A stretch of DNA of 64,000 nt from an uncultured Lachnospiraceae bacterium (lineage in GTDB: Bacteria > Bacillota > Clostridia > Lachnospirales > Lachnospiraceae): positions 32,106 to 96,105 of the forward strand of contig CAJTTU010000002.1 of NCBI GenBank assembly GCA_910579325.1, read 5' to 3'. Positions 4,258 to 64,000 of the stretch are shown here, piece after piece. Both the position numbers and the translations under genes were made by a program. The first letter of the stretch is position 1; every line of letters starts with the position of its first letter. The notes beneath the pieces were generated by a model. The model searched no databases. It saw only the letters and a list, made by a program, of their open reading frames with translations, and was not told where the DNA came from.

Positions 4258-4803
4258 CTATTTCAGAAGCTCGGAGATATTAATGAGCAGATCCTGGTAG
4301 ATTCCTGCCTGAATCGGAAGGTCAAAAGGCACAATAATCGGAGCGGAATCTTCCTCATACCAGTATACGGTCGTACGTTCCTTCGCGGGATCCACAATCC
4401 AGTATTCCCGGACGCCGGATTCGGAATAAATTGCGTTTTTAATAGAATAATCCATCTTACGGCTGCTGGGAGATACCAACTCAATGATGAAATCCGGAGC
4501 GCCTTCACAGCCTCTGTCAGTGAGCTTGTCAGGATCGCAGATCACGCTGATATCCGGATCCACCCAGTTTTGATCATTGGCATCAAGATTAACGGCAAAA
4601 GGGGCAGGGATAATTTCGCAATTTCAGTCATGTTCTTTGATGTGCCGACCGATTATTTGTGTAAATTCAGAAATTAATTTCTGATGCCTGAAATTCGGCG
4701 GCGACATATCATATAAATGTCCGTTAATAAGCTCGGCTCTCTGTCCCTCAGGCAGGTTCCAGTAGTCTTCTGATTTATAAGATTTTCTTTTTGGTAATGG
4801 CAT
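4258..4803 (-). pseudogene. Uma2-family (DUF820) endonuclease gene interrupted by one in-frame TGA
   Basis: The frame reads MPLPKRKSYKSEDYWNLPEGQRAELINGHLYDMSPPNFRHQKLISEFTQIIGRHIKEHD-TGA(4624-4626)-NCEIIPAPFAV...PDFIIELVSPSS...EYWIVDP with no frame change. Confidence 0.75.
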
Positions 4804-4888: not shown

Positions 4889-5140
4889 TTAATATTGATG
4901 ATATATTTCTCCTCTGTTTCCGGCATCTATGACAAATACAATACATTTTCCACTGTCAACAGTATAAATGATACGATAATTTCCTACTCGAAGCCGAAAC
5001 AGGTCGTTATGTCCTTTTAGCTTCTTTATATCTTCGCCATCAGGTAAACGCATAATAGCCGATACGACTCTGATTCTTTCGTTTTGCGGAAGCTTATCAA
5101 TAAATTTTTTGGCCTTTTTCTTGACGATGATTTGATACAT
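4889..5140 (-). CDS. RelE/ParE-family type II toxin
   Basis: MYQIIVKKKAKKFIDKLP...LKGHNDLFRLRVGNYRIIYTVD...IVFVIDAGNRGEIY. The start ATG overlaps the upstream stop as ATGA. Confidence 0.8.
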   Translation of the reverse strand: MYQIIVKKKAKKFIDKLPQNERIRVVSAIMRLPDGEDIKKLKGHNDLFRLRVGNYRIIYTVDSGKCIVFVIDAGNRGEIYHQY

Positions 5141-5355
5141 CAGCCAATCCCCCACTCTTTCATACATTCTTCTAATGTATAAGATTGGTCTTTTTCGGGG
5201 TCAGGGTCATTTTCATAGTTTTCAACCATTCTCTGGCAAAAGATATCATCAGCTTCTTCATCAGCGGTGATTCCCTGGACATACGCAAGGACATATCCCA
5301 TCTTATAGTCTGGAATGTTATCCAGTAAACTTATAATTCTTTCCTTATTACTCAT
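5140..5355 (-). CDS. Putative cognate antitoxin (71 aa)
   Basis: Small acidic ORF directly upstream of the toxin and translationally coupled to it. AAGGAG lies 8 nt before the ATG at 5355. Confidence 0.6.
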   Translation of the reverse strand: MSNKERIISLLDNIPDYKMGYVLAYVQGITADEEADDIFCQRMVENYENDPDPEKDQSYTLEECMKEWGIG

Positions 5356-5603
5356 AGCCAATTCTCCTTGCAGGTAAAGCTTTTTTGTACATGTGAATTT
5401 TCGTTGTTTGGTTTATGAGAAGTATATCATAAAATGCAAGTATGAACAATGCGCAATAGAGGCAAAAAATGTGAAAAATACAAACAAATGTTCGAAAGTG
5501 GTAAAATTTTGGAAGATGAAGAGAGGGTGAAAAATGAGGACAGTTAATTTGAAAAACCGTATTAGAAATGGCATCAAATCAAATACGGCTTATATGCAAA
5601 ACC

Positions 5604-5630
5604 TTCGTAGAATATTTCATTCTGCGAAAA
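5604..5630. repeat. Left copy of a 27-bp perfect inverted repeat (ttcgtagaatatttcattctgcgaaaa)
   Basis: Exact reverse complement of 6023-6049. It is itself an imperfect palindrome with a 10-bp stem and 5-nt loop. Confidence 0.95.
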
Positions 5631-6022
5631 TATTTTATCCAAAAGACATCATGCCAATTATATAGAATGTCTGAATCACTGTCAACCATTTTAAAAGATT
5701 TCAGAATTCGGTTCCAAATATTTAATAAAAGGTGTCAGAACCAAAAGGAATATCGGCTGTTAAATGCCTTTCTTACCTCTTATATCGGCAGTTTTCCCGA
5801 ATCCCTTAACCCGTTAGAAACAGTTTTTCCCTGAAAAAGATTTATTCGTCGTCAAAATCACCGTCAGAAGACTCTTTACTGCTGTCCCGTTGTCCGCCAA
5901 ACGAAGCAAAAGACCTATATTTTCCTGAAGTATTTGCGGACATATTCGTTTTCTGTCCATTTACCGTCAAAAAAGTGGTCAGACGCTCCCAAAAGTCCCG
6001 AAAAATCAGCTATATCGGGCCT

Positions 6023-6049
6023 TTTTCGCAGAATGAAATATTCTACGAA
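6023..6049. repeat. Right copy of the 27-bp inverted repeat, 58 nt upstream of the TnpB-like ORF
   Basis: ttttcgcagaatgaaatattctacgaa is the exact reverse complement of 5604-5630. Confidence 0.95.
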
Positions 6050-6106
6050 AATCGGTCCGGCCGAAAACAGAAAGGCCGGGCGTAGCCTGTTTAAGGGAAG
6101 ATAGGG

Positions 6107-7417
6107 ATGCCGCCGCAAACGATATTTAAAACGGTTTACCAATACAACAAGATTCCGGTCCCCTCCGGGGATATGACAAAGCTGCAGGAAATCGCAGGCG
6201 ATTGCCGCAGTGTCAGGAATTACGTGTATGAGCGTTACGGCGGAATCGGCGGTCTTTCAAAAATCTATCCGGGTTACGCCGTGCAGAACGAGATGACCCG
6301 AAGCGGATTACGGGAGCGGCTGGGATTGCCCTCCGTTTACTTCTATCTTTCCATTTTCGATGCGCTGGAAGATATCAGGAGCCAGTGGACACACACAAAA
6401 AGTCGGATCGAGCAGAATATCAGGGCAAACCATGAGCTGACGCCGAAAGACAGACATTACCTGCGTTTTGTGATGAAACAGAGAAGTTGTTTTGAAGCGA
6501 TTCTGACAGGCGGCAGGATGGAACTGTCCGGGGATTGGGAAAAGTCTTATGAGGCTCTCGGTGAAAAAGTCAATGTTCACAGGCTGAATCAATACCTCCG
6601 GCGGCAGGTGCGCAGGCATCTGCGAAAACCCCATACGGAAACGGCGGATGGATTTCCGGTTTCCGCGAAAGCGTACCGGTATGCGGATCACGGCATTTAC
6701 GTCGCAATGAAGGAGAAGCGGAAAAGGCTTTTTATCCTGCTGACAGATAATAACCGTTACGACAGGCAGATATATATCCGGCTTTATCCGAAAGATGGGA
6801 ATATCACCATCAATGTGCCGATCGAGGTAAGACAGAGAAAGCCTGCCGGCTATGACGGAGAGATCGGGCTTGCGATCGGAATGCGCCGCATGTTTGTGAC
6901 GGACAGAGGCAGCGTCTACGGGGAACGATATCTGGAATATCAGTCAGCCCTTACGGATTACGTACAAAAAAAGCTGCCGGGCCACCGCAGAAACGCAGAG
7001 AACAATCCCGGAACGAAAAAGTATGACGCAGGGAAAGCAAGACTGGAAGCTGCGCTGCGCACTTACGTAAATGCGGAAATCAACCGGATGCTGGAGACAG
7101 AAAAGCCGGGAACTGTATATTTTCCGAAATTGCCAGGCGTATCGAAGGCCGGGATAAATAAAAAGGTGAATACCGCTGTCAGCATGTGGCAGAAAGGCTA
7201 TGTAAAAAGCAGGCTGGCACAGAAGTGTAAAGAGCGCTCAGTGGAATTTGTCGAAGTGTTCGGAAAAGGGATCAGCGTCACGTGCAGTTACTGTGGAGCG
7301 GCGGGTAAAAAAGACGGAGAGATTTTCCGTTGTAACTCCTGCGGACTGGAAATGCCGGAGAAGCAGAATACGGCGGGGAATGTGATGAGAAAAGGACAGG
7401 AGCTGAAACGTTCATAA
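6107..7417 (+). CDS. TnpB-like (IS605 OrfB-type) protein with apparently substituted RuvC catalytic residues
   Basis: 436 aa with a C-terminal zinc ribbon CSYCG...CNSCG followed by NTAGNV (compare NAAxNI). A central GLAIG sits where GIDLG is expected and VYFPKL where hhhEDL is expected. No tnpA is adjacent. Confidence 0.7.
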   Translation: MPPQTIFKTVYQYNKIPVPSGDMTKLQEIAGDCRSVRNYVYERYGGIGGLSKIYPGYAVQNEMTRSGLRERLGLPSVYFYLSIFDALEDIRSQWTHTKSRIEQNIRANHELTPKDRHYLRFVMKQRSCFEAILTGGRMELSGDWEKSYEALGEKVNVHRLNQYLRRQVRRHLRKPHTETADGFPVSAKAYRYADHGIYVAMKEKRKRLFILLTDNNRYDRQIYIRLYPKDGNITINVPIEVRQRKPAGYDGEIGLAIGMRRMFVTDRGSVYGERYLEYQSALTDYVQKKLPGHRRNAENNPGTKKYDAGKARLEAALRTYVNAEINRMLETEKPGTVYFPKLPGVSKAGINKKVNTAVSMWQKGYVKSRLAQKCKERSVEFVEVFGKGISVTCSYCGAAGKKDGEIFRCNSCGLEMPEKQNTAGNVMRKGQELKRS

Positions 7418-7419
7418 TA

Positions 7420-7720
7420 GAAGGAACCATGGATGAATGCGCCGTCAGGCTGTATTTAACCGAAACCGGGGACGGGAAAAGGACTGTGGGGAATTCTTTT
7501 GATAAATCCGAAAAAATTTGTCACAGACACGTTTTGCCGGATGCGATATAAAAACAAGACGGCATTAGAAGCCGCTTTCGATTGAAGGTGGGTATTGGAT
7601 ATGCCAGGACCTGTGGGAACTCCGGGCGGGAAACCGTGTGGGAGAGGTACCGGGAGCGAAGCGGACAGGGACCAGATGTGCGGGAAATTACGCACAGAGG
7701 AACTGTAAGCAGCATCTGTA
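7420..7720 (+). ncRNA. Candidate structured non-coding RNA in the 3' tail of the TnpB-like gene (omega-RNA-like?)
   Basis: 300 nt with no credible ORF and GC-richer than the surrounding intergenic DNA. It has internal direct repeats (7466-7492 and 7622-7645) and nested hairpins: CAGATG 7673-7678 with CATCTG 7713-7718, and gtgcg 7678-7682 with cgcac 7691-7695. Confidence 0.3.
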
Positions 7721-7778
7721 ATTGATGTCCAAATATGTTTTATTAAATATGACACGGATAAAAGGAGGAACATCAGAG

Positions 7779-8300
7779 ATGGAAGAAATAGAGAAAACGG
7801 GAGAAAAGAAATCGAAGAAAAAAGTAATTATCATAGTGGTGATTGTGGCGCTGCTGGTGGTAATTGGGGCTTTGGGGTTTGTGATTTTTAATCTGTTAAA
7901 TAAAGAAGAACCCAAACCGCAGAGGGATGTCTCCCAGGGCCTTGTGGTGGATGGTGGTATGGAACAAAAGGCTAAAGATGCCAGGTTTACTACAGATATG
8001 AATATGATCTGGACATTCCCGTCAGGGAGCGTTACTTCCAACAATGCAATAATCGGGAATTCCGCCAGTAACCTTTATGAGTGTTATTTTGAGGTTTATC
8101 TGGATGATGAGGAGCAGACACTGCTTTACAGTTCACCGGTGATCCCGGTGGGGAAGAGGCTGGAGGAATTAAAGCTTGATAAAAGCTTACCTGATGGTAC
8201 TTATGATGCCATGTGTACCTACCATGTGCTGGATGATGAGGATCCTGAAAAAGAATTGGGATCAGTTTCCTTTGCGGTCAGTCTGGTGTTTGGCCAATGA
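7779..8300 (+). CDS. Membrane-anchored hypothetical protein (N-terminal TM helix, extracellular beta-rich domain)
   Basis: ATG at 7779 lies 8 nt after AAAGGAGGA. KKSKKK is followed by VIIIVVIVALLVVIGALGFVIF. Confidence 0.6.
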   Translation: MEEIEKTGEKKSKKKVIIIVVIVALLVVIGALGFVIFNLLNKEEPKPQRDVSQGLVVDGGMEQKAKDARFTTDMNMIWTFPSGSVTSNNAIIGNSASNLYECYFEVYLDDEEQTLLYSSPVIPVGKRLEELKLDKSLPDGTYDAMCTYHVLDDEDPEKELGSVSFAVSLVFGQ

Positions 8301-8419
8301 TTGATACATGATTCCCGGGGCAGGATGGGGACGGGAGTGAGGCAGAGCTTCTGGTACCGGATGCCACGGGGAATGTATATAGATTCAAATTCAAATTTTA
8401 TTAAATGGAGGAATGAAGT

Positions 8420-9541
8420 ATGAAGTTTAATGCTAAGAGAGCGGCAGCCTTTGCCATGGCAGCCTCGATGTGTCTTTCAGTTCCGGCTTTTGCGGCAGAA
8501 AACAGTGATAAGACAGCCGGCGATTTTACGACAAGCTTTGATATCTATTCACCTACGCTGACGGTCAGTGTGCCGCTCAATTTGGATGTTGAGGTGAATC
8601 CTTTTGCAGATAGCAGTGTTACTACACTGCAATACTACAGCGTAGCTTCTCAGAGCATGGATATTTGGAATGCTTCTACGGATACCAAGAAGGATATCGG
8701 TATTCCGGTAAATGTGGAGGTACAGGCCAGCATTGCGTCAAATGCTGAGGGTGTGGTGACGGAATATGGTACTTTCCAAGAAGATTCTAAATCCACAAAG
8801 AAGAGAATTCATCTGGATCTGGCAAGTCCGACAGCGCCGACAGTAGCACTGGTTACTGGTCAGACCCCTGCATGGAAAGACCCTGCTGCTACGGATAAAA
8901 AGCTGGATCTGAAAGTGGAAAATTATACATTAACTGCGATGGATTATAAAGCTGCTTCTAATAAAACGGCTATTACAAAGTTTGGCTCCTTGCTTTCTGT
9001 AGATATTGCGGCACCTACGACAAGTGCAACAGAAACGTCAACTGGTTCTAAAGATAAATTTTCTAAAGATCCCGAAAAAATTCTTCCTACCGTAGGTTCT
9101 TTTGCTGTAGTTGGTACAGCTAACAGCCATGCGGATTGGAAAGATACTGACGTGGCTGTGAATGTTAGCTATAAGATCACTGCAAGCAACCCGCTGGCGA
9201 TTACGACTCCTGGCGTAGACGGCGGTGCAGTGACAGTTGCGGCCGATACTGATGCCACAATTGTTATAAAAGACGTGGGCGAGGCTACCGTAGAAGCCAT
9301 TGCGGTTCATAATGACAAAGAAGGCGGATATGGGGATTATATTTGGGATGCTGACAGATATACTGTTACGTATGCCGAGGATAACAGTACTCCTGCCAAA
9401 ACAGATGCAACAATCACGATTTCCAAAGATGGAGAAGGCGGCCTTGCTTACCTTGCCTCTGCTTATAAAGGTGAAGCTCAAGATCTTTGCATCAAATTGT
9501 CTGATGGACGTATGGTTGTTAGTACACTGACTCAGAATTAA
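8420..9541 (+). CDS. Secreted surface or cell-wall-associated protein of unknown family
   Basis: Signal peptide MKFNAKRAAAFAMAASMCLSVPAFA|AE. The mature part is Thr/Ser/Ala/Val-rich. RBS is GGAGGA. Confidence 0.65.
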   Translation: MKFNAKRAAAFAMAASMCLSVPAFAAENSDKTAGDFTTSFDIYSPTLTVSVPLNLDVEVNPFADSSVTTLQYYSVASQSMDIWNASTDTKKDIGIPVNVEVQASIASNAEGVVTEYGTFQEDSKSTKKRIHLDLASPTAPTVALVTGQTPAWKDPAATDKKLDLKVENYTLTAMDYKAASNKTAITKFGSLLSVDIAAPTTSATETSTGSKDKFSKDPEKILPTVGSFAVVGTANSHADWKDTDVAVNVSYKITASNPLAITTPGVDGGAVTVAADTDATIVIKDVGEATVEAIAVHNDKEGGYGDYIWDADRYTVTYAEDNSTPAKTDATITISKDGEGGLAYLASAYKGEAQDLCIKLSDGRMVVSTLTQN

Positions 9542-9573
9542 TTATAGTAAAACCTTAAGAAATAATGTAAAAA

Positions 9574-9606
9574 AACAGGGCGTTTCTGCCACGCCCTGTT
9601 TTTCTC
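9574..9606 (+). terminator. Intrinsic terminator of the surface-protein operon
   Basis: cagggcg (9576-9582) pairs with cgccctg (9592-9598), followed by TTTTTC. Confidence 0.8.
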
Positions 9607-9708
9607 TTTATAGAAAATTGTATTTTCATAATGGAGGATCCGGTAAAAAATATGCTTAAATGTACATCACGCAGGCATATGTTCTGCCGGATGCGGAAAG
9701 GGGCTGTT

Positions 9709-10116
9709 ATGGATAGAAGGCGGGTATTGTTTTTGGCAGCGTCGTTTTTAGGGCTTGTTTGGGCTTTTCCTGCAAATGTGGCTTTGGGAGAAGGGACGGC
9801 AGGCACAAGTGTAAGCGGAGACATAATAACAAAGGAGACGGAACCGTATTCTGTAGATGGATCGGCTGCGGATAAAACAGAAACCGGAGAAATGGAAAAA
9901 TATGAGAACGACAAAAATGAAGTAAAAAACGTAGGAGTGACAAAAACTGAGGGAACGTTAGAAGATAAAGAAACTGTAAAAAATGAAGAAGAACGCAAAA
10001 TTGAAGATCTGGTAATTAACAAAGAAAACGTCAGGATGCGGACGGATATGGGCCGGGATACTGCCATATACCGTGTTTCATTGAGGAAAGTCGGGACGAC
10101 GGAGATAAAGAAGTAG
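9709..10116 (+). CDS. Secreted acidic low-complexity protein, possibly frame-disrupted at its 3' end
   Basis: MDRRRVLFLAASFLGLVWAFPANVALG is signal-peptide-like, followed by E/K/T-rich sequence. The acidic character continues in another frame from 10020 to 10316. Confidence 0.4.
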   Translation: MDRRRVLFLAASFLGLVWAFPANVALGEGTAGTSVSGDIITKETEPYSVDGSAADKTETGEMEKYENDKNEVKNVGVTKTEGTLEDKETVKNEEERKIEDLVINKENVRMRTDMGRDTAIYRVSLRKVGTTEIKK

Positions 10117-10322
10117 ATGGTGAAAAGAAAAGAATATCGGATACAGAGGAAGAAATGACAACAGAAACAAATCTATCCGGCGAAAAGACAGAGGAATTAT
10201 CATCGGAGAAAGAAACGACTGTGGAAGAAGAATCATCCGAAAGGGAAACTATATCGGAGGATATGCCGTCAGGGGAAGTAACATCAGCCGAGGGAACAGA
10301 CAAAAAAGAAGGGTAAGCTGAT

Positions 10323-11582
10323 ATGGACATGAGAAAAGGGCAGAAAAAAGAATGGAAGAGAAAACCATGGCCTCTGACAGTGGAAAACCTGTTTGATGAC
10401 GGCGTAAATTTCTGGTTTACGGAATTCACTTTTAACGGTTTGTTTCAAATGAATAAGAAAAATCGTATTCCTCGGTTCATTGGGGAATTTCCAGGGGAGG
10501 ATTTTTCTCAGGGGAGGCTATACACTTCCATGGTTATGTGTAATGGAAAGCTGTATTTTGCGCCTTTTTTTGCCAGAGAGATTGGCACATATGATTTGAG
10601 AACAGGGGAGTTTGGAAAAATCCCCATTCTTGTTCCTGAGAAAAGGGCAGGCTGGGACTGGAGTCGGGAAAAATTTTTTAAAGTTATGGCATCGGGAAAG
10701 CTGGTTTATTTTTTACCTTGTCATTATCCGGGGATTTTGTGTTATGACACGGAAACCGGCACATTCGACCTGTATGATCAGTGGGTGGATGAAGTGGAAA
10801 GGATGCGGATAAGCGAATGGTGGTATTTTTTTGATTATGAGCTGTCTGGCAGTACCTTATATCTTCCCTGTGGCTGCGCAGACAGTGTGGTTATGATTGA
10901 TATTGTTCAAAAGAAAACACGAATGTTGAAAGTGCCCGGAGGAGATTTTCCCTGTCGATTTTGCGGCATCTCCCAAAACGCAGGGTATTTTTATTTACTT
11001 CGAGGGGATGGGGTCGTGGTAAAACGGCGTTTGGAGACAGAGGAAGAGAATGAGAAGATAATCCGGTTGTCAGCGAAAAATGATGAAGAAGAGCAGGAGA
11101 TCACTTTTTATCCGGTATGCCAGGCAGGAAGATATCTGTATTTTTTCCCTTTTCTGGAAGGAAATTGTTTTCGGTTGGACATGGAGCACTGCAGAGTAGA
11201 GCCTGTAAAGGACTTTGACGATGAACAAAGCTTTGAAGGTTCTTGCTTTTTATTTCTCACGTCTCTTTGGGATGGAGAAACCTTGTATGCGACAGGGGGG
11301 AGAAGCCGTCTGTTTCTGGAGTGCCACCAGAAACAGAGAGAAGTCGTTTCGACTGGTTTGTTTTTGCGGGAGGATGAGCAGAGATTTCTGGAGGACAGAA
11401 AGAGGACGGATTTCCTTTTGCGAAACCGACAAAGGGAGATTTATGAAAATGAATGGGATTCTCTGGGGCTGTTGATGTCTGTGTTTGAGAAAGAAGAAGA
11501 TGCGCAGAATCTTTTTTTAGTGAAAAAATCGGTCACAGAATGTATCACATATGGAGAAGGAATATATCGGATTCTGATTTGA
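10323..11582 (+). CDS. Hypothetical protein with six Kelch-like or beta-propeller-like repeats
   Basis: Six spaced repeats of G..LY(F).P...(I/L).YD..T: GKLYFAPFF, GKLVYFLPC, GSTLYLPCG, AGYFYLLRG, GRYLYFFPF, GETLYATGG. Confidence 0.55.
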   Translation: MDMRKGQKKEWKRKPWPLTVENLFDDGVNFWFTEFTFNGLFQMNKKNRIPRFIGEFPGEDFSQGRLYTSMVMCNGKLYFAPFFAREIGTYDLRTGEFGKIPILVPEKRAGWDWSREKFFKVMASGKLVYFLPCHYPGILCYDTETGTFDLYDQWVDEVERMRISEWWYFFDYELSGSTLYLPCGCADSVVMIDIVQKKTRMLKVPGGDFPCRFCGISQNAGYFYLLRGDGVVVKRRLETEEENEKIIRLSAKNDEEEQEITFYPVCQAGRYLYFFPFLEGNCFRLDMEHCRVEPVKDFDDEQSFEGSCFLFLTSLWDGETLYATGGRSRLFLECHQKQREVVSTGLFLREDEQRFLEDRKRTDFLLRNRQREIYENEWDSLGLLMSVFEKEEDAQNLFLVKKSVTECITYGEGIYRILI

Positions 11583-11691
11583 TAAAAATATAAAAAACTG
11601 TTGCGGGATTTTTGTCACTGTATGACATGAAATAAACGACTTATGTGTTGGGAATGAGAAAGCGCTTTGATGGAATAAGGAGGTCAAGTGG

Positions 11692-14187
11692 ATGGAGCGG
11701 AACTTGTTAATCTCCGGAGATTTCGGACAGTGGAGGATAGAGGATCTGCGATGGGAGCGGGTATTCGACTATTTCTTTTGCGGTGACAGACGGATTTTGT
11801 ATGTTGTCGGTGAAAAGGGTAAGTTGCTGGGAATTATCACTTTAAAAGATTTTTTGGAGAATCCATTTCAGCTGGAAAAAGCGATAAACCGGAATTATTT
11901 TTTTGTGGAGGATGGTCCTGAAAGCAAAGTTCTTGCTCAGGCCAGAGATATCTATAAAAAACGAAAGATTTTGTCAGAGTTGCCTGTTATTGATAGCAGG
12001 CGTCATATGACAGGGTATGTGACATATGTACCCCAATGCCAGGAAGAAGCAGTTCCAAAGGTTCTTCAGGAGGTGAGGGAAAAAATAGAGGCCCTGAAAA
12101 CCAGCTATTATTTAAAAGAGGAGCTGGAGGCTTTTTACCAGATAGAAGATGGAACAGAGATTTTTATCAGGCAGTGTCCTATTGGTCTTGAGTTTGCTTC
12201 ACTTTTTGACGGAAATTTAAAGATGACCTTCCTTTCGGAACAGGAGTATCTGGATTTGATCAAGCGTTTGATGCGGAATGTAAATTGCCGTACGGAACAG
12301 GAAAAAACCTGTTTGCTGTTTGATCTGGATTCGGGAAAGCGACGGGAGCTGTGTCAACGATTTGGACTGGATTTTGTGTATGGACTGGAAACGTTTTTAC
12401 AAGAATTTCTGGAATTGGTGAACAAAGGAGTGTTTTCCATCCTGTTACGGATCACGCAGACAGCGAGATATACTCTGGAGGACTTTATCAGAGATAATGG
12501 TATGGAGGATATATCTTTTGCGACCAACAGGCTGCTGACAGGTTATTTATCCCGGTATATGAGGGAACGCCACATTCCTTTGGATATAAGGGCATCAGAT
12601 TATATTACAGTCATGCAGGTGGGGTGTCTGGTAAACGGAGTCAGGGGATGTCCTATTGATCCTATTGGATTTGAGTATTGCGATATGGTGGAGCAGCAAT
12701 ATTCTTTTATGGAAGAAGCCAAGAAAAAAGGAGTGTCCGTATTTTGCGTCAGCGCCGCTGTTCATGCGAAAACTACGGATACGGAAAAGCAAAGGATACA
12801 AAGGCTGGGCAGACTGGAAAATCTGCTTGCTGAGAAAAATGTGGAGTTTATACAGCAATTATATCAGGATGTATGCGAGGATCAATCACCATTGGAATAT
12901 GCGGAAGAATTGTTCTATCACTTTCCTGTAAGGAGAAGATTTGAGAATGATCTGGTTGTTAATGAGGATTATACCAGTCGTTATGTAAATATAGAAAATG
13001 GGATTCGTAGAACTTGCTATCAGCCGGAGAAATATGGGAATACCATATATTTTATAGGCCCCTGTTTTGCCATGGGTTCTTTTGTGGAAGACCGGCATAC
13101 GATTCCATCTTTGCTTGCGAAGTTGCTCAGGGAGAATGGTTACGCTTACAGAGTAGTAAATTTAGGTGTTTTGGCTTCTAATCAAAGCAAACGGATGATT
13201 CGGTCGCTGGAGTTGGAGAAGGGGGATATTATCATCTGCCTGATGTACAACGAGGGAGGGGGAGAAACGGGGAAGGTAATGGACCCCAGCCCGGCTTTTA
13301 ACCGACTTTGGCCCAGAAAAGATATGTTTTTGGACAAAGGAGTACATTGTAACGCAGAAGGAAATAAAGTTTATGCACAGGCGATTTATGACTACATTTA
13401 TCCGGCATTGAAAAAGAATGTGCCGGTTTTAAAAAAATTTAATATTTATAATGTGTTTAAACCTGATGTTCATGATTTTGGTTTATATGGAGCAAAAGAA
13501 TATTTAGAGATGCTTTTTCACAAAAGGGAAACAGTTCCCCAAAGCGCTAAAGTGATTGGAAGCATTGTGATGAATTGTAACCCTTTTACTTTAGGTCATG
13601 GGCATTTGGTAGAGTATGCCAGAGAAAACTGCGACTATCTTTTTATTTTTGTAGTTCAGGAGGACAAATCCTTTTTCCGGTTTGAGGATCGGTTTGCCAT
13701 AGCAAAGGCTTATTGTAAACAGTATGATGATGTAACGGTATTGCCCAGTGGGAAGATGATTGTTTCCGGCGTATCTTTTCCGGAATATTTTAAACGAGAA
13801 GTGGTACGAGATCAGGAAAGAGAGCATAAGCCTATTATGGTGACGCCGGCGATGGATTTTCGTCTGTTCGCTTATTATATTGCGCCGGCTTTGGGAATTC
13901 AAAAGCGGTTTGTGGCAGAAGAGCCTTTGGATTATGTAACCAGGGAATACAACGAGAGCATGAAACGGGTACTTTCCGCTTTTAATATCCAGGTAGAGGA
14001 AATTCCAAGAAAAGTTCTTCCCAGCGGGGAGATAATCAGTGCTTCCAGGGTGAGAAAATTATATCGAGAGCAGTGTTTTGAAAAGGTGAAAGAGCTGTTG
14101 CCAGATAGTACTTGGGAATATTTGGATGCAAAAGGTTTTTTTTGCGTCGGGAACTACTCCAGAAAAGAAAAATCGAGTTTGCGGTGA
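11692..14187 (+). CDS. Large multidomain protein: N-terminal CBS-like region, central unknown region, C-terminal citrate-lyase-ligase (CitC)-like cytidylyltransferase-fold domain
   Basis: ILYVVGEKGKLLGIITLKDF and ELPVIDSRRHMTGYV are CBS-like. The C-terminal MNCNPFTLGHGHLVEYA...YLFIFVVQEDKSFFRFEDR carries the (T/H)xGH nucleotidyltransferase motif. AAGGAGGT lies 7 nt before the ATG. Confidence 0.65.
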   Translation: MERNLLISGDFGQWRIEDLRWERVFDYFFCGDRRILYVVGEKGKLLGIITLKDFLENPFQLEKAINRNYFFVEDGPESKVLAQARDIYKKRKILSELPVIDSRRHMTGYVTYVPQCQEEAVPKVLQEVREKIEALKTSYYLKEELEAFYQIEDGTEIFIRQCPIGLEFASLFDGNLKMTFLSEQEYLDLIKRLMRNVNCRTEQEKTCLLFDLDSGKRRELCQRFGLDFVYGLETFLQEFLELVNKGVFSILLRITQTARYTLEDFIRDNGMEDISFATNRLLTGYLSRYMRERHIPLDIRASDYITVMQVGCLVNGVRGCPIDPIGFEYCDMVEQQYSFMEEAKKKGVSVFCVSAAVHAKTTDTEKQRIQRLGRLENLLAEKNVEFIQQLYQDVCEDQSPLEYAEELFYHFPVRRRFENDLVVNEDYTSRYVNIENGIRRTCYQPEKYGNTIYFIGPCFAMGSFVEDRHTIPSLLAKLLRENGYAYRVVNLGVLASNQSKRMIRSLELEKGDIIICLMYNEGGGETGKVMDPSPAFNRLWPRKDMFLDKGVHCNAEGNKVYAQAIYDYIYPALKKNVPVLKKFNIYNVFKPDVHDFGLYGAKEYLEMLFHKRETVPQSAKVIGSIVMNCNPFTLGHGHLVEYARENCDYLFIFVVQEDKSFFRFEDRFAIAKAYCKQYDDVTVLPSGKMIVSGVSFPEYFKREVVRDQEREHKPIMVTPAMDFRLFAYYIAPALGIQKRFVAEEPLDYVTREYNESMKRVLSAFNIQVEEIPRKVLPSGEIISASRVRKLYREQCFEKVKELLPDSTWEYLDAKGFFCVGNYSRKEKSSLR

Positions 14188-14202
14188 AAGGGTAAAAAGG
14201 GA

Positions 14203-15717
14203 ATGTCAAATATGGAATATATTATCGTCCAGGCAGGCGGCAAAGGAACCCGGCTGCAATATCTTACGAAAAATAAACCAAAGGCGCTTGTTCCGGTGGA
14301 AAACCTGCCGATGTTATTTCACTTGTTTCAAAAATATCCGGACAAGCGTTTTATTATCATAGCGGATTACCATAAAGAGGTTTTACATGAGTATCTGGCT
14401 GCCTTTGCGAAGGTCAAATACAGGATTGTTGATGCTCAGGGGACAGGGACCTGCGCTGGGGTGCGTCAGGCGGTAAGCCTGATTCCGGAAGGGCAGGCCT
14501 TTATGTTGATCTGGTCAGATCTGATTCTGCCGGACAGTTTTATGCTGCCCGACGAATATGGAGCCGATAATGGTTCAGCGAATAATTATATAGGAATCTC
14601 AAAAACTTTTCCATGCAGATGGAGTTATTGTGACGGTCTGTTTACGGAGGAACGATCCAGCGAACATGGCGTGGCGGGTTTCTTTTTGTTTTCCGATAAA
14701 AGTATATTGACGGATGTACCGGAGAGCGGAGAGCTGGTACGCTGGATGCAGCAGAAATCTTTTCGCTTTAAAGAGATCAGCCTTGCCGGAACAAAAGAAT
14801 TTGGCCTGTTGGAAGAATATCAGAAACTGGCACGTGAAAAATGCCGCCCTTTTAACCGGATTACTTTTGAGGGCGACTATTTGATTAAAGAACCGGTGGA
14901 TGATCAGGGAGAAAAGCTTGCGACGAAGGAACAGGCGTGGTATGAGAAGGCCGTCCGGAATAAAGTGGATATCATTCCAAAAATATATGAGAAATCCCCG
15001 TTAAAAATGGAGCGGATATCCGGAAAAAATATATATGAGTACCAGCTGTCATATAAAGAAAAAGCCGAGATTCTTGAAAAGCTGGTCGCTGCGCTGCGTC
15101 ATCTGCATCAATCTGACAGTATAGAAGCTGACGCTTTCAGCATGCGGGAGGCTTATTTTAATAAGACAATGGACAGGCTGTCGCGGATAGAGGATCTGGT
15201 GCCTTTCGCCCGGGAGCGGGAGATTGTGATTAATGGGAAGAAGTGCAAAAACGTTTATTTTCTTAAACGTAAGCTGGAAAAAATGCTGCAGCGGCTTTCC
15301 TGTGACAGGTTTTCTTTTATTCACGGGGACTGTACCTTTTCAAATTTAATGCTGAGGGATAACGGTGAGCCGGTATTGATTGACCCAAGGGGATATTTTG
15401 GGTATACGGACTTTTATGGGGACGTCCGGTATGACTGGGCGAAACTGTACTACTCAATCGTGGGCAATTATGACCGTTTTAATCTGAAACAGTTTAAATT
15501 GGAAATTGGTGAGAATGGTGTTTTTTTGGAAATACAGTCCAATGGCTGGGAGGATATGGAGGATGAGTTTTTCCGTCTTACCAGAGCGGAACCGGAAGAG
15601 ATCAGACTGATTCATGCGGTAATCTGGTTATCCCTGACGACTTATGCCTGGCAGGATTATGACTCCATATGCGGGGCGTTTTATAACGGGCTGTATTATC
15701 TGGAGGATCTGTGGTGA
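14203..15717 (+). CDS. Bifunctional nucleotidyltransferase / kinase (LicC-LicA-like architecture)
   Basis: The N-terminus IVQAGGKGTRLQYLTKNKPKALVPV matches the NTP-transferase G-x-G-t-R-l motif. The C-terminus FIHGDCTFSNLML...LIDPRGYFG matches the choline/aminoglycoside-kinase catalytic loop. Confidence 0.7.
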   Translation: MSNMEYIIVQAGGKGTRLQYLTKNKPKALVPVENLPMLFHLFQKYPDKRFIIIADYHKEVLHEYLAAFAKVKYRIVDAQGTGTCAGVRQAVSLIPEGQAFMLIWSDLILPDSFMLPDEYGADNGSANNYIGISKTFPCRWSYCDGLFTEERSSEHGVAGFFLFSDKSILTDVPESGELVRWMQQKSFRFKEISLAGTKEFGLLEEYQKLAREKCRPFNRITFEGDYLIKEPVDDQGEKLATKEQAWYEKAVRNKVDIIPKIYEKSPLKMERISGKNIYEYQLSYKEKAEILEKLVAALRHLHQSDSIEADAFSMREAYFNKTMDRLSRIEDLVPFAREREIVINGKKCKNVYFLKRKLEKMLQRLSCDRFSFIHGDCTFSNLMLRDNGEPVLIDPRGYFGYTDFYGDVRYDWAKLYYSIVGNYDRFNLKQFKLEIGENGVFLEIQSNGWEDMEDEFFRLTRAEPEEIRLIHAVIWLSLTTYAWQDYDSICGAFYNGLYYLEDLW

Positions 15718-15791
15718 TAAAGGATAAATTTGGAGAGTGGTTTTTTAATATATTTATATGACATGGCGGATACGCCAAGAAAGGGGAAAGC

Positions 15792-16388
15792 ATGCTGGCC
15801 TATTTTGAGGAGCAGATGAAAGAACTGGACAAATCCATACATTCCATAGATGAGCCTATGTTTCGGAAAATGTTGGACAAAGCGGTGGAGACTTTAGACG
15901 CAGGTCACAAAATCATAGTTTCGGGTCTGGGAAAGAATGTCCCGATCTGTGAGAAATTCGTTGGCTCAATGGTATCCATGGGGCTGGACGCTTATTTTTT
16001 ACATACCAATTCGGCGGTGCATGGCGATATGGGGCTGGTAAAAGACGGGGACATGGTAATCATCCTGACAAAGAGCGGCGAGACCTCGGAGTCTATTTAT
16101 CTGGCCAGGTTGTTGAGGGAAAGAGATATCCATATGTGGCTGTTGACGTTCTGCGGGCAGAGCACGTTGGCCAGGGAAATCCCGGACAGCATTATATTAG
16201 ATTTGAGCCATGAGGGAGATCCGTGGAATATCATGCCGAATAATTCCACAACGATGAACTTGATTGTGCTGCAGGGCCTGGCCATGATGATAGCGAGGAA
16301 GAAGGACTTGAGAATTGAGGATTTTAAAAGAAATCATCCGGGCGGGCATATTGGTGAGATTTTAAACAATAATGAGCGGGAACATTGA
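15792..16388 (+). CDS. SIS-domain sugar-phosphate isomerase (KpsF/GutQ-like SIS domain without CBS pair)
   Basis: IIVSGLGKNVPICEKFVGSMVSMGLDAYFLHTNSAVHGDMGLVKDGDMVIILTKSGETSE. Confidence 0.75.
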   Translation: MLAYFEEQMKELDKSIHSIDEPMFRKMLDKAVETLDAGHKIIVSGLGKNVPICEKFVGSMVSMGLDAYFLHTNSAVHGDMGLVKDGDMVIILTKSGETSESIYLARLLRERDIHMWLLTFCGQSTLAREIPDSIILDLSHEGDPWNIMPNNSTTMNLIVLQGLAMMIARKKDLRIEDFKRNHPGGHIGEILNNNEREH

Positions 16389-16443
16389 GGGGATTAAATT
16401 AAATCCTGAATAAAAAAGGAATCATGAGACATGGAGCAGGGTA

Positions 16444-16938
16444 ATGGGAAAACCGGGTATACGAATCGCGAGAGGCATGATTTACTGGTATCAATTGAGA
16501 TTGTTATTGCGAATCAACTATAAGAAAAGTGTTCTGGTTCTCGCCGGGGAGAGTGAGGAGCTGGATGACTGCTGTATTCTTCATCTTGGAGATTTTATGA
16601 GGAGGAAACATGTAGACGGCGCTATTATTATTTATGCGTCTGACAGGGAGATCCGTGTAAACCGGGAGAATGGCATGGAGAGGATACGGAAGTACAGAAT
16701 ATCAAAGTATCGGATGAGATTATTGTATGATGCGTATTGTTTCTATAAATTTTATGATAATATCGTTTTTACTTATACGGACACACCTGAGGATAACCTT
16801 TTGGGCAGGTATTTAAGAGAAACAAAGGTGAACACGGAGGATGCGGCGTGCCTTGCGCTTTATCATTTACGCCGCGTGCCGAAGCGAGAAACAGTTCAGG
16901 AGAAACAGATATGTATGACGCGGAACTCCGTAAAGTAA
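16444..16938 (+). CDS. Hypothetical protein, first gene of duplicated module 1
   Basis: The ORF overlaps the next gene by 28 nt. It has weak colinear similarity to 20325-20699 (LLYDAYCFYKFYD vs KKLYFMYEFSG). Confidence 0.4.
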   Translation: MGKPGIRIARGMIYWYQLRLLLRINYKKSVLVLAGESEELDDCCILHLGDFMRRKHVDGAIIIYASDREIRVNRENGMERIRKYRISKYRMRLLYDAYCFYKFYDNIVFTYTDTPEDNLLGRYLRETKVNTEDAACLALYHLRRVPKRETVQEKQICMTRNSVK

Positions 16939-18212
16939 CGAGAAAGCTGAGATTTCGTAATGCCCTTGGAACGCTGAGAAAAAAAACAGTGTATCTGTTC
17001 GGTGTAAGTGACAATACCAGGCAGGTAATTCAAATCCTGCGCGAATTAGGCATGGAGCCATGTAACGTAATCGATAATGACAGGACAAAGCAAAACAGCT
17101 ATTGCGCGAGACTGAGGGTTATTTCATTGGACGAGGCGGATTCGCCGGGAGCGTCGGAGAAAATCTATATGATATATTCGACATACTGGCGAGAAATGCT
17201 TCCGCAGTTAATGAAATACGGAGTGAAAAGACGGAATATATGGAAATTAAATCCCGCTCAGGATTGTCTGCCGGAATTATTGCTCAAAGCATATAGAGGG
17301 AAACGCTACAGAGAGCGTTTACGTAAAAAATATGGTGATATACCTGTTTTTCTGTGCCCATATACAGGCAGTGGGGATATTTACCTGATCGGAACCTTTT
17401 GGGACGAGTATATAAGGCGTAACCATATTGAGGATTATGTGTTCGTGGTGATAACAGGGGCGTGTAAAAAAGTGGCTTCGTTATTTGACATTAAAAATGT
17501 GGAGTTAGTAAAGAAAAAAGAATACGCACAGTATTTGATCGACTACTATCTGTACGATCCGGAAAAAGGAAAGATTAAGCTGCTTAATGATTGCTGGGCG
17601 CAGGTTCACACGAACCAGACGGAATGGTTCAGGGGATATAAAGGATTATATTTTACGGAATTGTTCAGAAGGTTTGTTTTTGATTTGCCGGACGATGTAA
17701 GGCCGCGGCATCCCGCCTATAAGGACGAGTCGGAGTGCGTGAGGGAGCTTTTTAACAAATATGGCCTGCCGCCGGGAAAGACAATTATTATATCGCCATA
17801 TTCGAATACGCTGTCAGATCTTCCGGAATGGTTTTGGGAGGGATTGGTTGAAAAGCTTTCGAGGAAAGGATATTGTGTCGGGACGAACAGCGGCGGGAAG
17901 ACGGAGCCGGCCATTGCCGGGAGCAAAGAAATATTTTTCCCATTAGACATCGCCCCACAGTTTATTGAGCGAGCGGGAGGGTTTATAGGGGTTCGGAGCG
18001 GGCTGTGCGATGTGATCAGCGGGACTTCCGCCAGGAAGGTAATATTATATGACGCCAGGAACAGGTTTTATATGGGAAGTGCGTATGAGTATTTCAGTTT
18101 AAGGCGGATGGGATTGTGTGAGGATGTGGAGGAAATAGAATACGCAGATATTGATATGGGGAACGTTATAGACAGAATACTGCGAATATTTATTGATCAG
18201 GAAGATATATGA
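16911..18212 (+). CDS. Putative GT-B/GT9-like glycosyltransferase, paralog 1
   Basis: AGGAGA lies 6 nt before the ATG at 16911. N-terminal Rossmann-like VYLFGVSDNTRQVIQIL...VIDND. The C-terminal ERAGGFIGVRSGLCDVISGTSARKVILY resembles the heptosyltransferase-type IG.DSG..H motif region. Confidence 0.55.
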   Translation: MYDAELRKVTRKLRFRNALGTLRKKTVYLFGVSDNTRQVIQILRELGMEPCNVIDNDRTKQNSYCARLRVISLDEADSPGASEKIYMIYSTYWREMLPQLMKYGVKRRNIWKLNPAQDCLPELLLKAYRGKRYRERLRKKYGDIPVFLCPYTGSGDIYLIGTFWDEYIRRNHIEDYVFVVITGACKKVASLFDIKNVELVKKKEYAQYLIDYYLYDPEKGKIKLLNDCWAQVHTNQTEWFRGYKGLYFTELFRRFVFDLPDDVRPRHPAYKDESECVRELFNKYGLPPGKTIIISPYSNTLSDLPEWFWEGLVEKLSRKGYCVGTNSGGKTEPAIAGSKEIFFPLDIAPQFIERAGGFIGVRSGLCDVISGTSARKVILYDARNRFYMGSAYEYFSLRRMGLCEDVEEIEYADIDMGNVIDRILRIFIDQEDI

Positions 18213-18244
18213 AATAAACAATTCAAACAGCGAGAGGTTATATT

Positions 18245-19453
18245 ATGACAACGACAATTAAAAGAAATAAACATTGGATCAATCGTCTGCCTCATATTTA
18301 TGAGTTGGATGATTTGCTGGATTTTTGTGGAAAACATGAGCGTATATATATATACGGAAGAGGTGAGGAACAGGAATATCTTTTAAAATTTCTTGATATG
18401 TGCGGCGTAAGAACGGAAGGCTATGTGGTTTCCTGTTCCCCGTGTGAGGAGAATTTTTATTACAGGAAGATACCGGTAAAACTGGCCGAGGACGTAACAG
18501 GAACGCCGGGCGTCGGGATTATCCTGGCCCTTCCGGACAGATATTATGACGAGATTATTCCCATGTTTCGGAAATTAAATTTCCAGAACTGGATCTCATT
18601 GACAGAGCACAGCAGGCTGGGAATCGCGGAGCAGATGGCCCCCAGGAAAAAGTCCGAGATGGCTTTTGAGATCAGCCTGGCCGACCATTGTAATCTCTCC
18701 TGTCAGATGTGTGACCATTTCTCCCAATTGTCAGAGGAATGGCTTGTGGATTTGGGTCAGCTGAAACGGGATGTGGAGCGTATGGGCGAATTGTTTGATC
18801 ATGAGATTGGCGCGATCACGTTATTGGGCGGGGAGCCGACACTGCATCCTGATTTATTGGAAATTATTCGATATACAAGAAAACAGTTCCCTCATACGGA
18901 ATTGATTCTGCTCACCAATGGGGTTCTGTTGGAGAAGCTTGAGAAGTCACCCAAAGGTAATTTGTGGGAAGTGATGAAAGAGAATGACACGCATGTAACG
19001 GTCACGGTGTATCCGTTGAGGCTTGATTACGCCAAAATGGAGGAAATGGCGAAGAAGTATGGCGTGATGTTAAAAATGTCGTCGGATATTCACGCAGTGG
19101 AAGCGACGAAAGTAACAAAGATCTCAGATAAGCACACAATGGATCTGAGCGGACAGGTACCAAAGGGACACTGCGTTCACTGTCTTTATTTTAATAAATT
19201 TAATGTGGTTAAGGATGGGAAATATTATATGTGCCCGATCCAGGCGCATATCAATATTTTTAACAGCCGCTTTAATAAAGAACTCGCTTATGTGGAGGGC
19301 GACTATTTGGATATCTATCAGGTAAAAAGCTGGGAGGAGTTCGCGGAATTCAGTTCCTGGTGGGTACCGTTTTGCCGCTACTGCGATCAAAAGAACTGGG
19401 GGCCTCACAGCCAATGGAAGCCGAGTAACAAAGAGTTAAGCGAGTATGTGTAA
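18245..19453 (+). CDS. Radical SAM enzyme with an N-terminal Rossmann-like extension
   Basis: ADHCNLSCQMCDHF is the CxxxCxxC motif. Further Cys residues near the C-terminus (HCVHC, MCP, FCRYC) suggest an auxiliary cluster. Confidence 0.75.
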   Translation: MTTTIKRNKHWINRLPHIYELDDLLDFCGKHERIYIYGRGEEQEYLLKFLDMCGVRTEGYVVSCSPCEENFYYRKIPVKLAEDVTGTPGVGIILALPDRYYDEIIPMFRKLNFQNWISLTEHSRLGIAEQMAPRKKSEMAFEISLADHCNLSCQMCDHFSQLSEEWLVDLGQLKRDVERMGELFDHEIGAITLLGGEPTLHPDLLEIIRYTRKQFPHTELILLTNGVLLEKLEKSPKGNLWEVMKENDTHVTVTVYPLRLDYAKMEEMAKKYGVMLKMSSDIHAVEATKVTKISDKHTMDLSGQVPKGHCVHCLYFNKFNVVKDGKYYMCPIQAHINIFNSRFNKELAYVEGDYLDIYQVKSWEEFAEFSSWWVPFCRYCDQKNWGPHSQWKPSNKELSEYV

Positions 19454-19466
19454 ACGGGGCGGGAAG

Positions 19467-20273
19467 ATGATAGGAGCAGTATCGATTGATAAAGACATGA
19501 ATGTCCCCATGATCGGGCTAGGAACCTTTGACCTGAAAGCGGAAGAGATTCTGGCGGGGATACAGGTGGGATACAGGCTGCTGGACACGGCCTGGCAATA
19601 TGGGAATGAAGCGGAAGTAGGGAAGGCAGTAAAAGAAAGCGGCGTTAAACGAGAGGAAATCATTATAACAACCAAGCTGTGGACGGATGATATACGGAAG
19701 CGCCGCGTAAGAGAGGCGTGTGAGGAAAGTCTCAGAGCGTTTCGGATGGATTACGTGGATTTGTATTTAATTCACTGGCCGGCGGAAGGATTTGAGTATG
19801 CGTGGGAAATCATGACGCAGTTAAAAGAAGAAGGGAAAATCAGGGCGGTGGGAGTGAGCAATTTTCAGGAACATCATTTGAAGGCGCTGGAGCGGGTTTC
19901 CGCAACGAGACCAGTACTGAATCAGATAGAGTGCCATCCGTATTTCCGGAATGAGGGATTGATCGCGTATTGCCGGGAATATGATATCGCGGCGCAGGCC
20001 TGGTGTCCCTTAGGAGGAAGTTACAGCCAGTTAGTGAACGATCATCGTTTGAGACCTCTGGCGGAAAAGCACCGGAAGGCATCGGCTCAGATCGTTCTGA
20101 GATGGCATCTGCAAAAGAATGTGTTAATCATTCCAAGAACGTCAAATCGGCAGCATCTTGTGTCTAATCAGGATATTTTTGATTTCTGGCTGGACAATCA
20201 TGATATGGAAGTGATTGACAGCATGGATACCGGACGCAGAATCGGAGCGGATCCGGACAGCTTTGATTTTTAA
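19467..20273 (+). CDS. Aldo/keto reductase
   Basis: PMIGLGTF...GYRLLDTAWQYGNEAEVG...IIITTKLW...DLYLIHWP...GVSNF are classic AKR motifs. Confidence 0.85.
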   Translation: MIGAVSIDKDMNVPMIGLGTFDLKAEEILAGIQVGYRLLDTAWQYGNEAEVGKAVKESGVKREEIIITTKLWTDDIRKRRVREACEESLRAFRMDYVDLYLIHWPAEGFEYAWEIMTQLKEEGKIRAVGVSNFQEHHLKALERVSATRPVLNQIECHPYFRNEGLIAYCREYDIAAQAWCPLGGSYSQLVNDHRLRPLAEKHRKASAQIVLRWHLQKNVLIIPRTSNRQHLVSNQDIFDFWLDNHDMEVIDSMDTGRRIGADPDSFDF

Positions 20274-20324
20274 ACGGCCGAGAATATAAAGGAAATATAT
20301 GGAAAAAGGATATCTTGCGCGCGA

Positions 20325-20699: not shown

Positions 20700-20714
20700 G
20701 TAAAAATAGAAATT

Positions 20715-63717: not shown

Positions 63718-63763
63718 AGCCTTTATACTGGTATATACGATCCGCGCGAAACCTGCGCGTAGT

Positions 63764-63872: not shown

Positions 63873-64000
63873 TAGTTGTGTTGTATTGGTTATTATAACC
63901 TGTTTTGGGTCGGTTTGCAAGTGGTTTTTTGGAAAAATTGTATATGAAAAAAGAATATCCATAAGAATCCATAAAAAATCCCCGGATTCATTTTCCGGGG

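Follow-up and report, generated by a model that had tools for sequence, protein, structure and literature searches.

The 64,000-nucleotide (nt) stretch of DNA analysed here, referred to below as the window, comes from an uncultured Lachnospiraceae bacterium (assembly GCA_910579325.1, contig CAJTTU010000002.1, positions 32,106 to 96,105). It contains a gene for a TnpB-like protein in which all three RuvC catalytic positions appear to be substituted. The gene is preceded by an invertible promoter, is followed directly by a conserved structured RNA and stands at the head of a surface-protein and glycan operon. A preliminary description of the window had singled out the gene as a candidate for a domesticated, nuclease-dead RNA-guided protein, without mention of the conserved 3′ RNA or the invertible promoter, the two features that define the locus best. 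From left to right the locus consists of the following parts.

5604–5630, unstranded: left inverted repeat (TTCGTAGAATATTTCATTCTGCGAAAA), 27 nt, 100% complementary to 6023–6049
5631–6022, unstranded: invertible segment of 392 nt, free of recombinase genes
5657–5685, minus strand: sigma-70 promoter TTGACA-17-TATAAT, matching the consensus at 12 of 12 hexamer positions and directed away from the gene (OFF)
6023–6049, unstranded: right inverted repeat, ending 57 nt before the ATG
6050–6106, plus strand: 5′ leader preceding the TnpB-like ORF; a GC hairpin (GGTCCGGCC...GGCCGGGC) and a ribosome-binding site can be read from the sequence
6107–7417, plus strand: TnpB-like open reading frame (ORF) for a predicted nuclease-dead protein, 436 aa, ATG start, uninterrupted
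6872–6874, 7124–7126 and 7361–7363, plus strand: codons at the RuvC positions, A256, P340 and K419 respectively
7283–7285, 7292–7294, 7331–7333 and 7340–7342, plus strand: codons of the zinc-ribbon cysteines C393, C396, C409 and C412
7410–7750 (approximate, ~340 nt), plus strand: conserved structured non-coding RNA, candidate omega-RNA or guide-RNA scaffold (blastn, MAFFT, nhmmer, RNAalifold), with the conserved motifs GGATGAAYG, ATTTGACC, TTCTTTTGATA, ACGGCATTAGAAGCC, GGGTATTGGGTATGCCAGGACC and GTACCGGGAGCGAAGC
7709–7735, plus strand: terminal hairpin of this RNA, followed by CAAATATGYYTTATT, which ends at 7744
7745–7778, plus strand: locus-specific tail after the scaffold, a candidate guide that also serves the first operon gene as 5′ untranslated region (UTR) and ribosome-binding site
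7779–21953 (end approximate), plus strand: co-directional cargo operon

The ORF encodes an intact protein of the TnpB family which, judged from profile matches and fold prediction, combines an RuvC-like fold with a C-terminal TNB zinc ribbon. The Pfam model of the Cas12f1-like TNB domain (PF07282) matches at 30.9 bits against a cut-off of 26.3. The NCBIfam model guided_TnpB (NF040570) covers residues 181–427 at 46 bits, below its cut-off of 100, which is exceeded by the relatives P0207 (132 bits) and P0204 (117 bits). A sequence search of the PDB gives matches to Cas12m, Cas12f, TnpB and a mimivirus TnpB-like protein, all confined to the C-terminal lobe. An AlphaFold2 (AF2) model of the window protein has a mean pLDDT (predicted local distance difference test) of 59.7 and is reliable for residues 250–436 only; its best fold matches in the PDB are ISFba1 TnpB (8iaz), Cas12p, Cas12f, Fanzor2 and ISDra2 TnpB (8h1j), with Foldseek E values of ~1e-8 against TnpB and Cas12f. 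The TnpB architecture given in the preliminary description is borne out by the uninterrupted frame, the PF07282 score and the fold prediction, and its zinc ribbon by the four cysteines, which are invariant in the family.

The catalytic positions were assigned from an alignment of 36 full-length relatives of decreasing similarity, taken from a full HMMER scan with the family profile, which aligns at positions 1–430 with relatives and returned 1,436 of them at E ≤ 1e-3. Relatives with an intact Asp/Glu/Asp (DED) triad, which are at most 28% identical to the window protein, carry the motifs IGxDKGY, xxxEDLxF and DADxNAAxNIL. In the same columns the window protein reads IGLAIGM (A256), VYFPKLPG (P340) and PEKQNTAGNV (K419). 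K419, which is Lys or Arg throughout the family, stands opposite the third RuvC Asp in the PDB sequence alignments as well. In the 79 genes taken from fetched loci, Ala (61) or Ser (18) occupies position 256, Pro (55), Val (16), Ala (6), Gln (1) or Met (1) position 340, and Lys (43) or Arg (36) position 419; in every one of these genes the three sites are free of acidic residues and the four zinc-ribbon cysteines are retained. E418, one residue before the third site, is invariant, and it cannot rebuild the triad because the first two sites are gone. The dead state extends to relatives at 28–50% identity (P0173–P0201). By this alignment A256, P340 and K419 occupy the RuvC Asp/Glu/Asp positions, and their loss is real and far beyond chance. 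The preliminary description had chosen the same three residues by eye; its choice is no artefact of that procedure, as no Asp, Glu or Asp is placed at the catalytic columns of the window protein.

Two observations concern what has replaced the triad. The third catalytic Asp has always given way to a basic residue (Lys or Arg, 79/79 genes) and never to a random one. In addition D266, in the motif FVTDxG (codon 6902–6904), is invariant in the 20 closest homologues, and active relatives have Ser there. The basic residue at 419 together with the new acidic D266 suggests that the old active-site pocket has been rebuilt and has not simply decayed.

The window protein belongs to a large clade. A word-indexed protein search gave 1,106 clusters at 90% identity, with 65–97% identity among the 120 matches listed, and a scan of one genome per species gave 250 relatives. 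Locus work was carried out on the best 80 of these 250, each fetched locus spanning ~13 kb. All 80 are from Lachnospiraceae (~70 genomes in all, mostly mouse-gut metagenome-assembled genomes), and 10 of the genomes contain two or three diverged paralogues each. Cultured carriers are Schaedlerella arabinosiphila, Acetatifactor muris, Sporofaciens musculi, Clostridium porci, Dorea sp. 5-2 and Lachnospiraceae bacterium M18-1 and 3-2. Paralogues of the same genome diverge by ~30–50%. The ORF is intact at all 80 genomic loci, and the ratio of non-synonymous to synonymous substitution rates (dN/dS) is 0.06–0.11 for the 10 pairs with unsaturated dS. The clade is under strong purifying selection and the 80 loci contain no pseudogene decay, the outcome that the preliminary description had named as speaking against its proposal. 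At two loci long antisense ORFs run over the TnpB-like gene (L011 5971–7692, 573 aa; L032 5893–7359, 488 aa; both on the minus strand); the strong purine and GC skew of the sense strand most likely explains them.

The DED-intact relatives align over their full length with the clade at 22–28% identity. The gene of one of them, P0207, overlaps a gene for a protein with a MerR-type helix–turn–helix (HTH) and a resolvase domain, which is the architecture of IS607 TnpA. Judged on this one inspected locus, the clade may descend from an IS607-type TnpB. No tnpA gene was found in the window or in the fetched loci, no recombinase gene of any kind lies anywhere in the window, and the window contains one copy each of the gene and of the RNA. 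A search of the IMG/VR viral contigs gave no family member. The earlier view that this is no active insertion sequence (IS) agrees with the lack of tnpA, the lack of near-identical copies and the divergence of the paralogues. The accompanying remark that neither tnpA nor a serine recombinase gene adjoins the gene is correct for the window and does not extend to related loci, whose modules include a tyrosine or serine invertase.

The promoter upstream of the gene lies on a segment bounded by inverted repeats, and inverted repeats are present at most of the loci. Homologous repeats (TTTCGyrGAwT...ATTCTrCGAAA) occupy the same place in ~35 related loci. Inversion of the window segment would bring the promoter to ~25 nt inside the right repeat and direct it into the ORF. 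The related loci take two forms. Type A loci, whose proteins are at least 56% identical to that of the window, have repeats of 25–33 nt around a segment of either ~1.42 kb with a tyrosine recombinase gene (PF00589) or 310–420 nt without a recombinase, which is the form in the window. Type B loci, whose proteins are ~52% identical, have repeats of 18–36 nt around ~100–120 nt and, just beyond them, the gene of a Hin-type serine recombinase (PF00239).

Both orientations of the segment occur among homologous loci. A perfect promoter points toward the gene at 8 loci (L009, L027, L031, L033, L034, L035, L036 and L045) and away from it at 11 (the window, L007, L008, L010, L012, L016, L018, L019, L023, L039 and L083). 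L019 4375–5848 is inverted with respect to L031 5847–4374 (88%), as is L009 3965–4381 with respect to L010 5943–5527 (92%), and in both pairs the breakpoints coincide with the repeats. The segment is likewise inverted between the homologous loci L072 and L078, and the invertons of the window and L035 are homologous over 459 nt (69.5%) in opposite orientation. At the window's own locus the promoter is OFF in 7/7 assemblies (the window and six others encoding an identical protein), and flipping at that locus was not seen directly. As no recombinase gene lies within the 64 kb, flipping in the window, if any, would have to be catalysed in trans. Taken together, the repeats, the promoter, its two orientations among homologous loci and the recombinases identify an inverton switch, by its sequence features, which is OFF in the assembled window.

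Directly behind the gene lies the structured RNA, which was recognized by its conservation. This region is 72–85% identical in nucleotide sequence even where the proteins are only 50–70% identical (blastn, MAFFT). In nhmmer searches it occurs as one copy per locus at 85 of 86 loci, always on the strand of the gene and directly after it; at the sole locus without a copy the contig ends there. The match in the window covers 7421–7759 (E 1.6e-63). RNAalifold gives 30 base pairs, with compensatory changes at 19 of them. A structure of 38 pairs has 93.5% of its cells paired, as against 33–47% with the partners slid, and shows double changes at 23 of the 38 pairs; none of 500 shuffles reached these values. 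The terminal hairpin and, after it, CAAUAUGYYUUAUU form the 3′ end. Comparison with Rfam gave no match for the RNA, whether by gathering score or by E value. A shortened form, in which the core motifs GGCAUU, GGCCAGGACC, GGAGCGAAGC and CAAUGCUUAU are kept, stands behind the gene of a dead relative that is only 35% identical (L090). By analogy with TnpB systems the RNA would be the cognate scaffold to which the TnpB-like protein binds. One site in the RNA differs between loci: the window has a specific insertion of ~41 nt (7505–7545), and at the corresponding site other loci carry unrelated hairpin insertions of 20–60 nt, so that this part appears to be a tolerated variable arm.

Homology between related modules ends shortly after the RNA, at 2–21 nt past the TTATT (+9, +6, +2, +4 and +21 in five pairs). 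The inverton, the gene and the RNA therefore make up a cassette whose right edge is sharp and coincides with the 3′ end of the RNA. In TnpB elements it is at such an edge that the omega-RNA scaffold gives way to a guide derived from the flanking DNA. Across the 80 loci the order is inverton, gene, RNA and glycan or surface operon. The first operon gene starts 34 nt past the TTATT in the window and 22–50 nt past the scaffold at many other loci, and the RNA of the window is not followed by a terminator-like hairpin and U-run. The TnpB-like mRNA, the RNA and the operon are predicted from this arrangement to be co-transcribed from the phase-variable promoter.

The cargo is variable and always co-directional with the gene. 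At 50 loci it includes an uncharacterized protein of 450–890 aa and at 25, the window among them, the pair of a small membrane protein and a secreted one of ~350 aa; further genes found there are those for GT2 glycosyltransferases, DegT aminotransferases, epimerases, TagD-like and IspD-like nucleotidyl- and cytidylyltransferases and ATP-grasp ligases. In the window the operon contains the following genes.

7779–8300, plus strand: small membrane protein
8420–9541, plus strand: secreted protein of 373 aa
9631–10116, plus strand: truncated gene, 161 aa
Further products of the operon, which after the membrane and secreted pair comprises enzymes of nucleotide activation and modification: a 419-aa protein, a CBS and cytidylyltransferase-like protein, an NTP-transferase/kinase, a protein with a SIS domain, a radical SAM protein and an aldo-keto reductase

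The preliminary description had placed the gene co-directionally ahead of surface-protein and glycan genes inside an AT-rich island. Both statements hold: the plus-strand operon runs from 7779 to ~21953, and GC content is 39–46% at 4–24 kb compared with 51–56% elsewhere in the window. In a further assembly (L001) this locus agrees fully with the window over ~17 kb save for 463 extra nt (L001 10649–11111) at window position 10082/10083. The third operon gene accordingly encodes 375 aa there (L001 10218–11345) and 161 aa in the window, the difference being either a strain-level deletion or an assembly difference. Two minus-strand stretches, 4258–4803 and 4889–5361, hold a gene remnant and a gene pair. 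The remnant is a Uma2-family endonuclease gene that is split into ORFs of 101 and 59 aa and is probably a frameshifted pseudogene. It adjoins a toxin–antitoxin pair, a ParE/RelE-type toxin with a small upstream partner, and both the remnant and the pair lie just left of the inverton on the strand read by the OFF-state promoter. Two housekeeping RNAs unrelated to the locus reach Rfam gathering scores, the bacterial large signal recognition particle RNA (59365–59626, plus strand) and a flavin mononucleotide riboswitch (63761–63875, minus strand).

These features can be read as belonging to a new TldR-like clade, TldRs being nuclease-dead TnpB homologues, with a cognate RNA; the two would be co-transcribed with phase-variable surface operons and would change transcription by RNA-guided binding. 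We regard this reading as evenly poised between right and wrong. A recombinase, either the tyrosine enzyme encoded inside the inverton or the serine invertase encoded beside it, and in the case of the window an enzyme acting in trans, would flip the promoter to ON. In that state a single transcript would comprise the TnpB-like mRNA, the RNA scaffold and the operon. The protein would bind the scaffold and the locus-specific tail would serve as the guide, as in TnpB with its omega-RNA and TldR with its guide RNA. The complex would then bind matching DNA without cutting it and change transcription. The target could be competing surface loci, resulting in a hierarchy of one locus at a time like those of FljA and UpxZ; alternatively it could be the complex's own leader, resulting in feedback on the operon. 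The specific form of this proposal, in which each surface-glycan locus has its own dead TnpB and guide RNA that silence paralogous loci or gate its own operon by an R-loop in the leader, we consider doubtful. The interpretation is supported at the level of sequence; the regulatory mechanism, and with it any guide and target, is putative. A role as RNA-guided repressor is proposed by analogy; the scaffold was found, and no guide–target pair was found in the sequence examined.

Several results weigh against RNA-guided regulation by this protein. The N-terminal half of the AF2 model is of low confidence (the alignment is shallow). The RNA shows no detectable similarity to the 3′ region of the single available active IS607-type relative (L087), is about three times longer than the scaffolds of characterized TldRs (~100 nt) and lies wholly downstream of the stop codon. 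The candidate guide overlaps the 5′ UTR and ribosome-binding site, as the operon starts 22–50 nt past the scaffold at many loci. The tails gave no reproducible match to their own upstream regions (73 loci) and no second match in the 64-kb window. In a search of 45-nt tails by exact 12-mer index against all loci (~13 kb each), the matches were at homologous positions or scattered, and none fell within the same genome; trans targets among paralogous loci were rejected on this result. The one guaranteed match of each tail is its own template, and for that reason a model with a cis R-loop or roadblock is possible.

Two other candidates for the guide or its target were rejected. A 13-nt exact reverse-complement match between 7738–7750 and 5718–5730, which would place the target ~35–50 nt upstream of the −35 element of the invertible promoter, on the opposite strand, was not reproduced in the 73 loci and is probably due to chance in AT-rich sequence. 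The conserved 3′ motif AATRTGYYTTATT is found inside the RNA only, save for extra downstream copies at ~8 type B loci. At these loci (L051, L057, L066, L072, L076, L078 and others) a second and sometimes a third copy of (A)TATRTRYYTTATT lies 55–140 nt past the first TTATT, in the leader before the first operon gene and often after AAGTTT. The extra copies could be a repeated binding or target site.

The overlap of the candidate guide with the 5′ UTR of the next gene makes a cis-acting leader a serious rival. In this case the dead TnpB would bind the nascent leader RNA as a ribonucleoprotein (RNP) and act through processive antitermination, through the processing or stability of the RNA, or on the translation of the first gene, with no guided targeting of DNA. 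The logic would be that of UpxY, LoaP and EAR, and long glycan operons often depend on dedicated antitermination by UpxY, RfaH or LoaP. The RNA lies within a polycistronic transcript with no terminator after it, and a gap of 34 nt to the next start codon in the window, or of 22–50 nt at many loci, leaves no room for a separate promoter. The failure to find a DNA target in the window, in the tails' own upstream regions or at other loci is also as expected for such a leader. The 3′ motif varies by transitions only (A/G, C/U), which in our reading is what pairing with the invariant GGCAU would allow. However, no TnpB or Cas12 relative is known to act as an antiterminator. Module homology breaks off right after the scaffold, as it does at the right end of a transposon where omega-RNA guides begin, and a complete TnpB-type RuvC and zinc-ribbon lobe has been kept under strong constraint. 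We give the cis-acting leader a real but minor probability.

It is improbable that the protein and the RNA act independently, the RNA as a riboswitch-like or otherwise protein-independent leader and the protein as a conventional DNA- or RNA-binding factor of TnpB descent. Binding of the one to the other is deduced by analogy, and the class of the RNA is left open by the lack of an Rfam match. Yet the two are linked one to one at 85 of 86 loci and also in a relative that is only 35% identical, in an order that is the canonical arrangement of TnpB and omega-RNA. Slightly less credible still is a regulator of the switch itself, an RNP that binds near the inverton and biases or locks the orientation of the promoter, providing hysteresis of the ON state. 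It would account for the gene always being first behind the inverton, in company with two unrelated classes of recombinase. That same independence of recombinase class speaks against a role in recombination chemistry; furthermore, the RNA tails show no reproducible complementarity to the inverton or its flanks, the single 13-nt match of the window being absent from other loci. Finally, an ordinary IS200/IS605/IS607 element, active or decaying, that lies upstream of the operon by chance is refuted and its probability negligible: although NCBI labels family members 'transposase' and the active relative lies in an IS607-type element, the triad is missing from 79/79 genes, there are no tnpA and no near-identical copies, dN/dS is ~0.08, and the place at the head of an operon is conserved at 80 loci in ~70 genomes.

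Cell-wall glycans and surface proteins shape susceptibility to phages and recognition by the host immune system. Gut Lachnospiraceae carry the clade described here in abundance, with several paralogues per genome and, at 90% identity, more than 1,100 clusters. What is newly described for Firmicutes is an anatomy in which an inverton, a dead TnpB and an RNA form a cassette with swappable cargo and two classes of recombinase. If the reading as RNA-guided regulators is correct, RNA-guided control would be added to phase variation, a prediction that can be tested in cultured mouse-gut isolates, and transposon-derived RNA-guided proteins would for the first time be linked to surface phase variation in gut commensals. 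If the targets are in trans, the system would be an RNA-programmed equivalent of UpxZ or FljA that ensures one surface type per cell. With targets in trans or in cis alike, it would represent a third recurrent solution in which the first gene of a phase-variable surface locus is its regulator. The protein and its RNA would also provide a compact scaffold for engineering, a naturally dead TnpB that retains its zinc ribbon.

TldRs are a recently recognized class of natural RNA-guided transcription factors, and those studied act as repressors (Wiegand et al., bioRxiv 10.1101/2023.11.30.569447; Xiao et al., bioRxiv 10.64898/2026.09.22.753285). Three clades have been characterized, associated with fliC, oppF and csrA, with guide-RNA scaffolds of ~100 nt, and the roles of most clades are described by the authors as unclear (10.1101/2023.11.30.569447; 10.64898/2026.09.22.753285). 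In the operational definition, a TldR is a homologue of TnpB in which at most one of the DED residues is conserved (10.1101/2023.11.30.569447). The present clade is similarly derived from TnpB and keeps none of the three DED residues, and its tnpA and transposon ends have been lost; it has acquired a stable new gene association and has a non-coding RNA 3′ of the gene. It differs from the characterized TldRs in its neighbourhood, which consists of an invertible promoter, a tyrosine or serine invertase and variable glycan and surface operons. The zinc ribbon and C-terminus are fully kept, the RNA is ~340 nt long compared with ~100 nt, the gene is the first co-transcribed gene of its operon and is not phage-borne, and no guide matching a promoter was found. 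A motif scan found no CsrA or flagellin signature in more than 86 loci or in the window, and no oppF was found among the neighbours, which are glycan enzymes and recombinases. The context is therefore unlike that of flagellin-linked and oppF-linked TldRs, as the preliminary description had supposed. By the published operational definition the proteins, going by their sequences, are TldR-like and stand outside the three characterized clades by context. The literature yielded no publication that connects TnpB or TldR with invertons, with Lachnospiraceae or with polysaccharide loci, although the supplementary lists of the TldR paper may include family members.

The nearest inspected intact relative is a TnpB of the IS607 family, which shares with the clade the order of its domains and, as a family, the presence of a structured RNA (omega-RNA) after the gene. 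Active forms have the Asp/Glu/Asp triad, a serine-recombinase TnpA with a MerR-type HTH, and mobility, and the clade has none of these. Other nuclease-inactive members of the TnpB/Cas12 superfamily, namely dCas12f with sigmaE, which carries out RNA-guided transcription (Hoffmann et al., Nature 2026, PMC13472631), Cas12k, Cas12m and Cas12c, have been repurposed for RNA-guided DNA binding and control of transcription. Unlike these, the present loci have no CRISPR array, associated sigma factor or transposition genes, and they belong to another lineage and host phylum. No array-like direct repeats or cas genes occur among the neighbours, and the Cas12f2 and Cas12b models give weak partial matches only.

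In function the closest comparison is with phase-variable surface loci that co-transcribe a trans-acting regulator, such as Salmonella hin-fljBA with FljA and the capsular polysaccharide (CPS) loci of Bacteroides with UpxY and UpxZ. In these systems an invertible promoter drives a surface operon whose first gene or genes are regulatory, as is proposed here, and a genome contains several paralogous loci; as with hin, some of the loci described here hold the recombinase gene inside the invertible segment. FljA, UpxY (which is NusG-like) and UpxZ are unrelated to the TnpB-like protein and have no RNA component, whereas the locus in the window pairs its putative regulator, the TnpB-like protein, with a conserved structured RNA.

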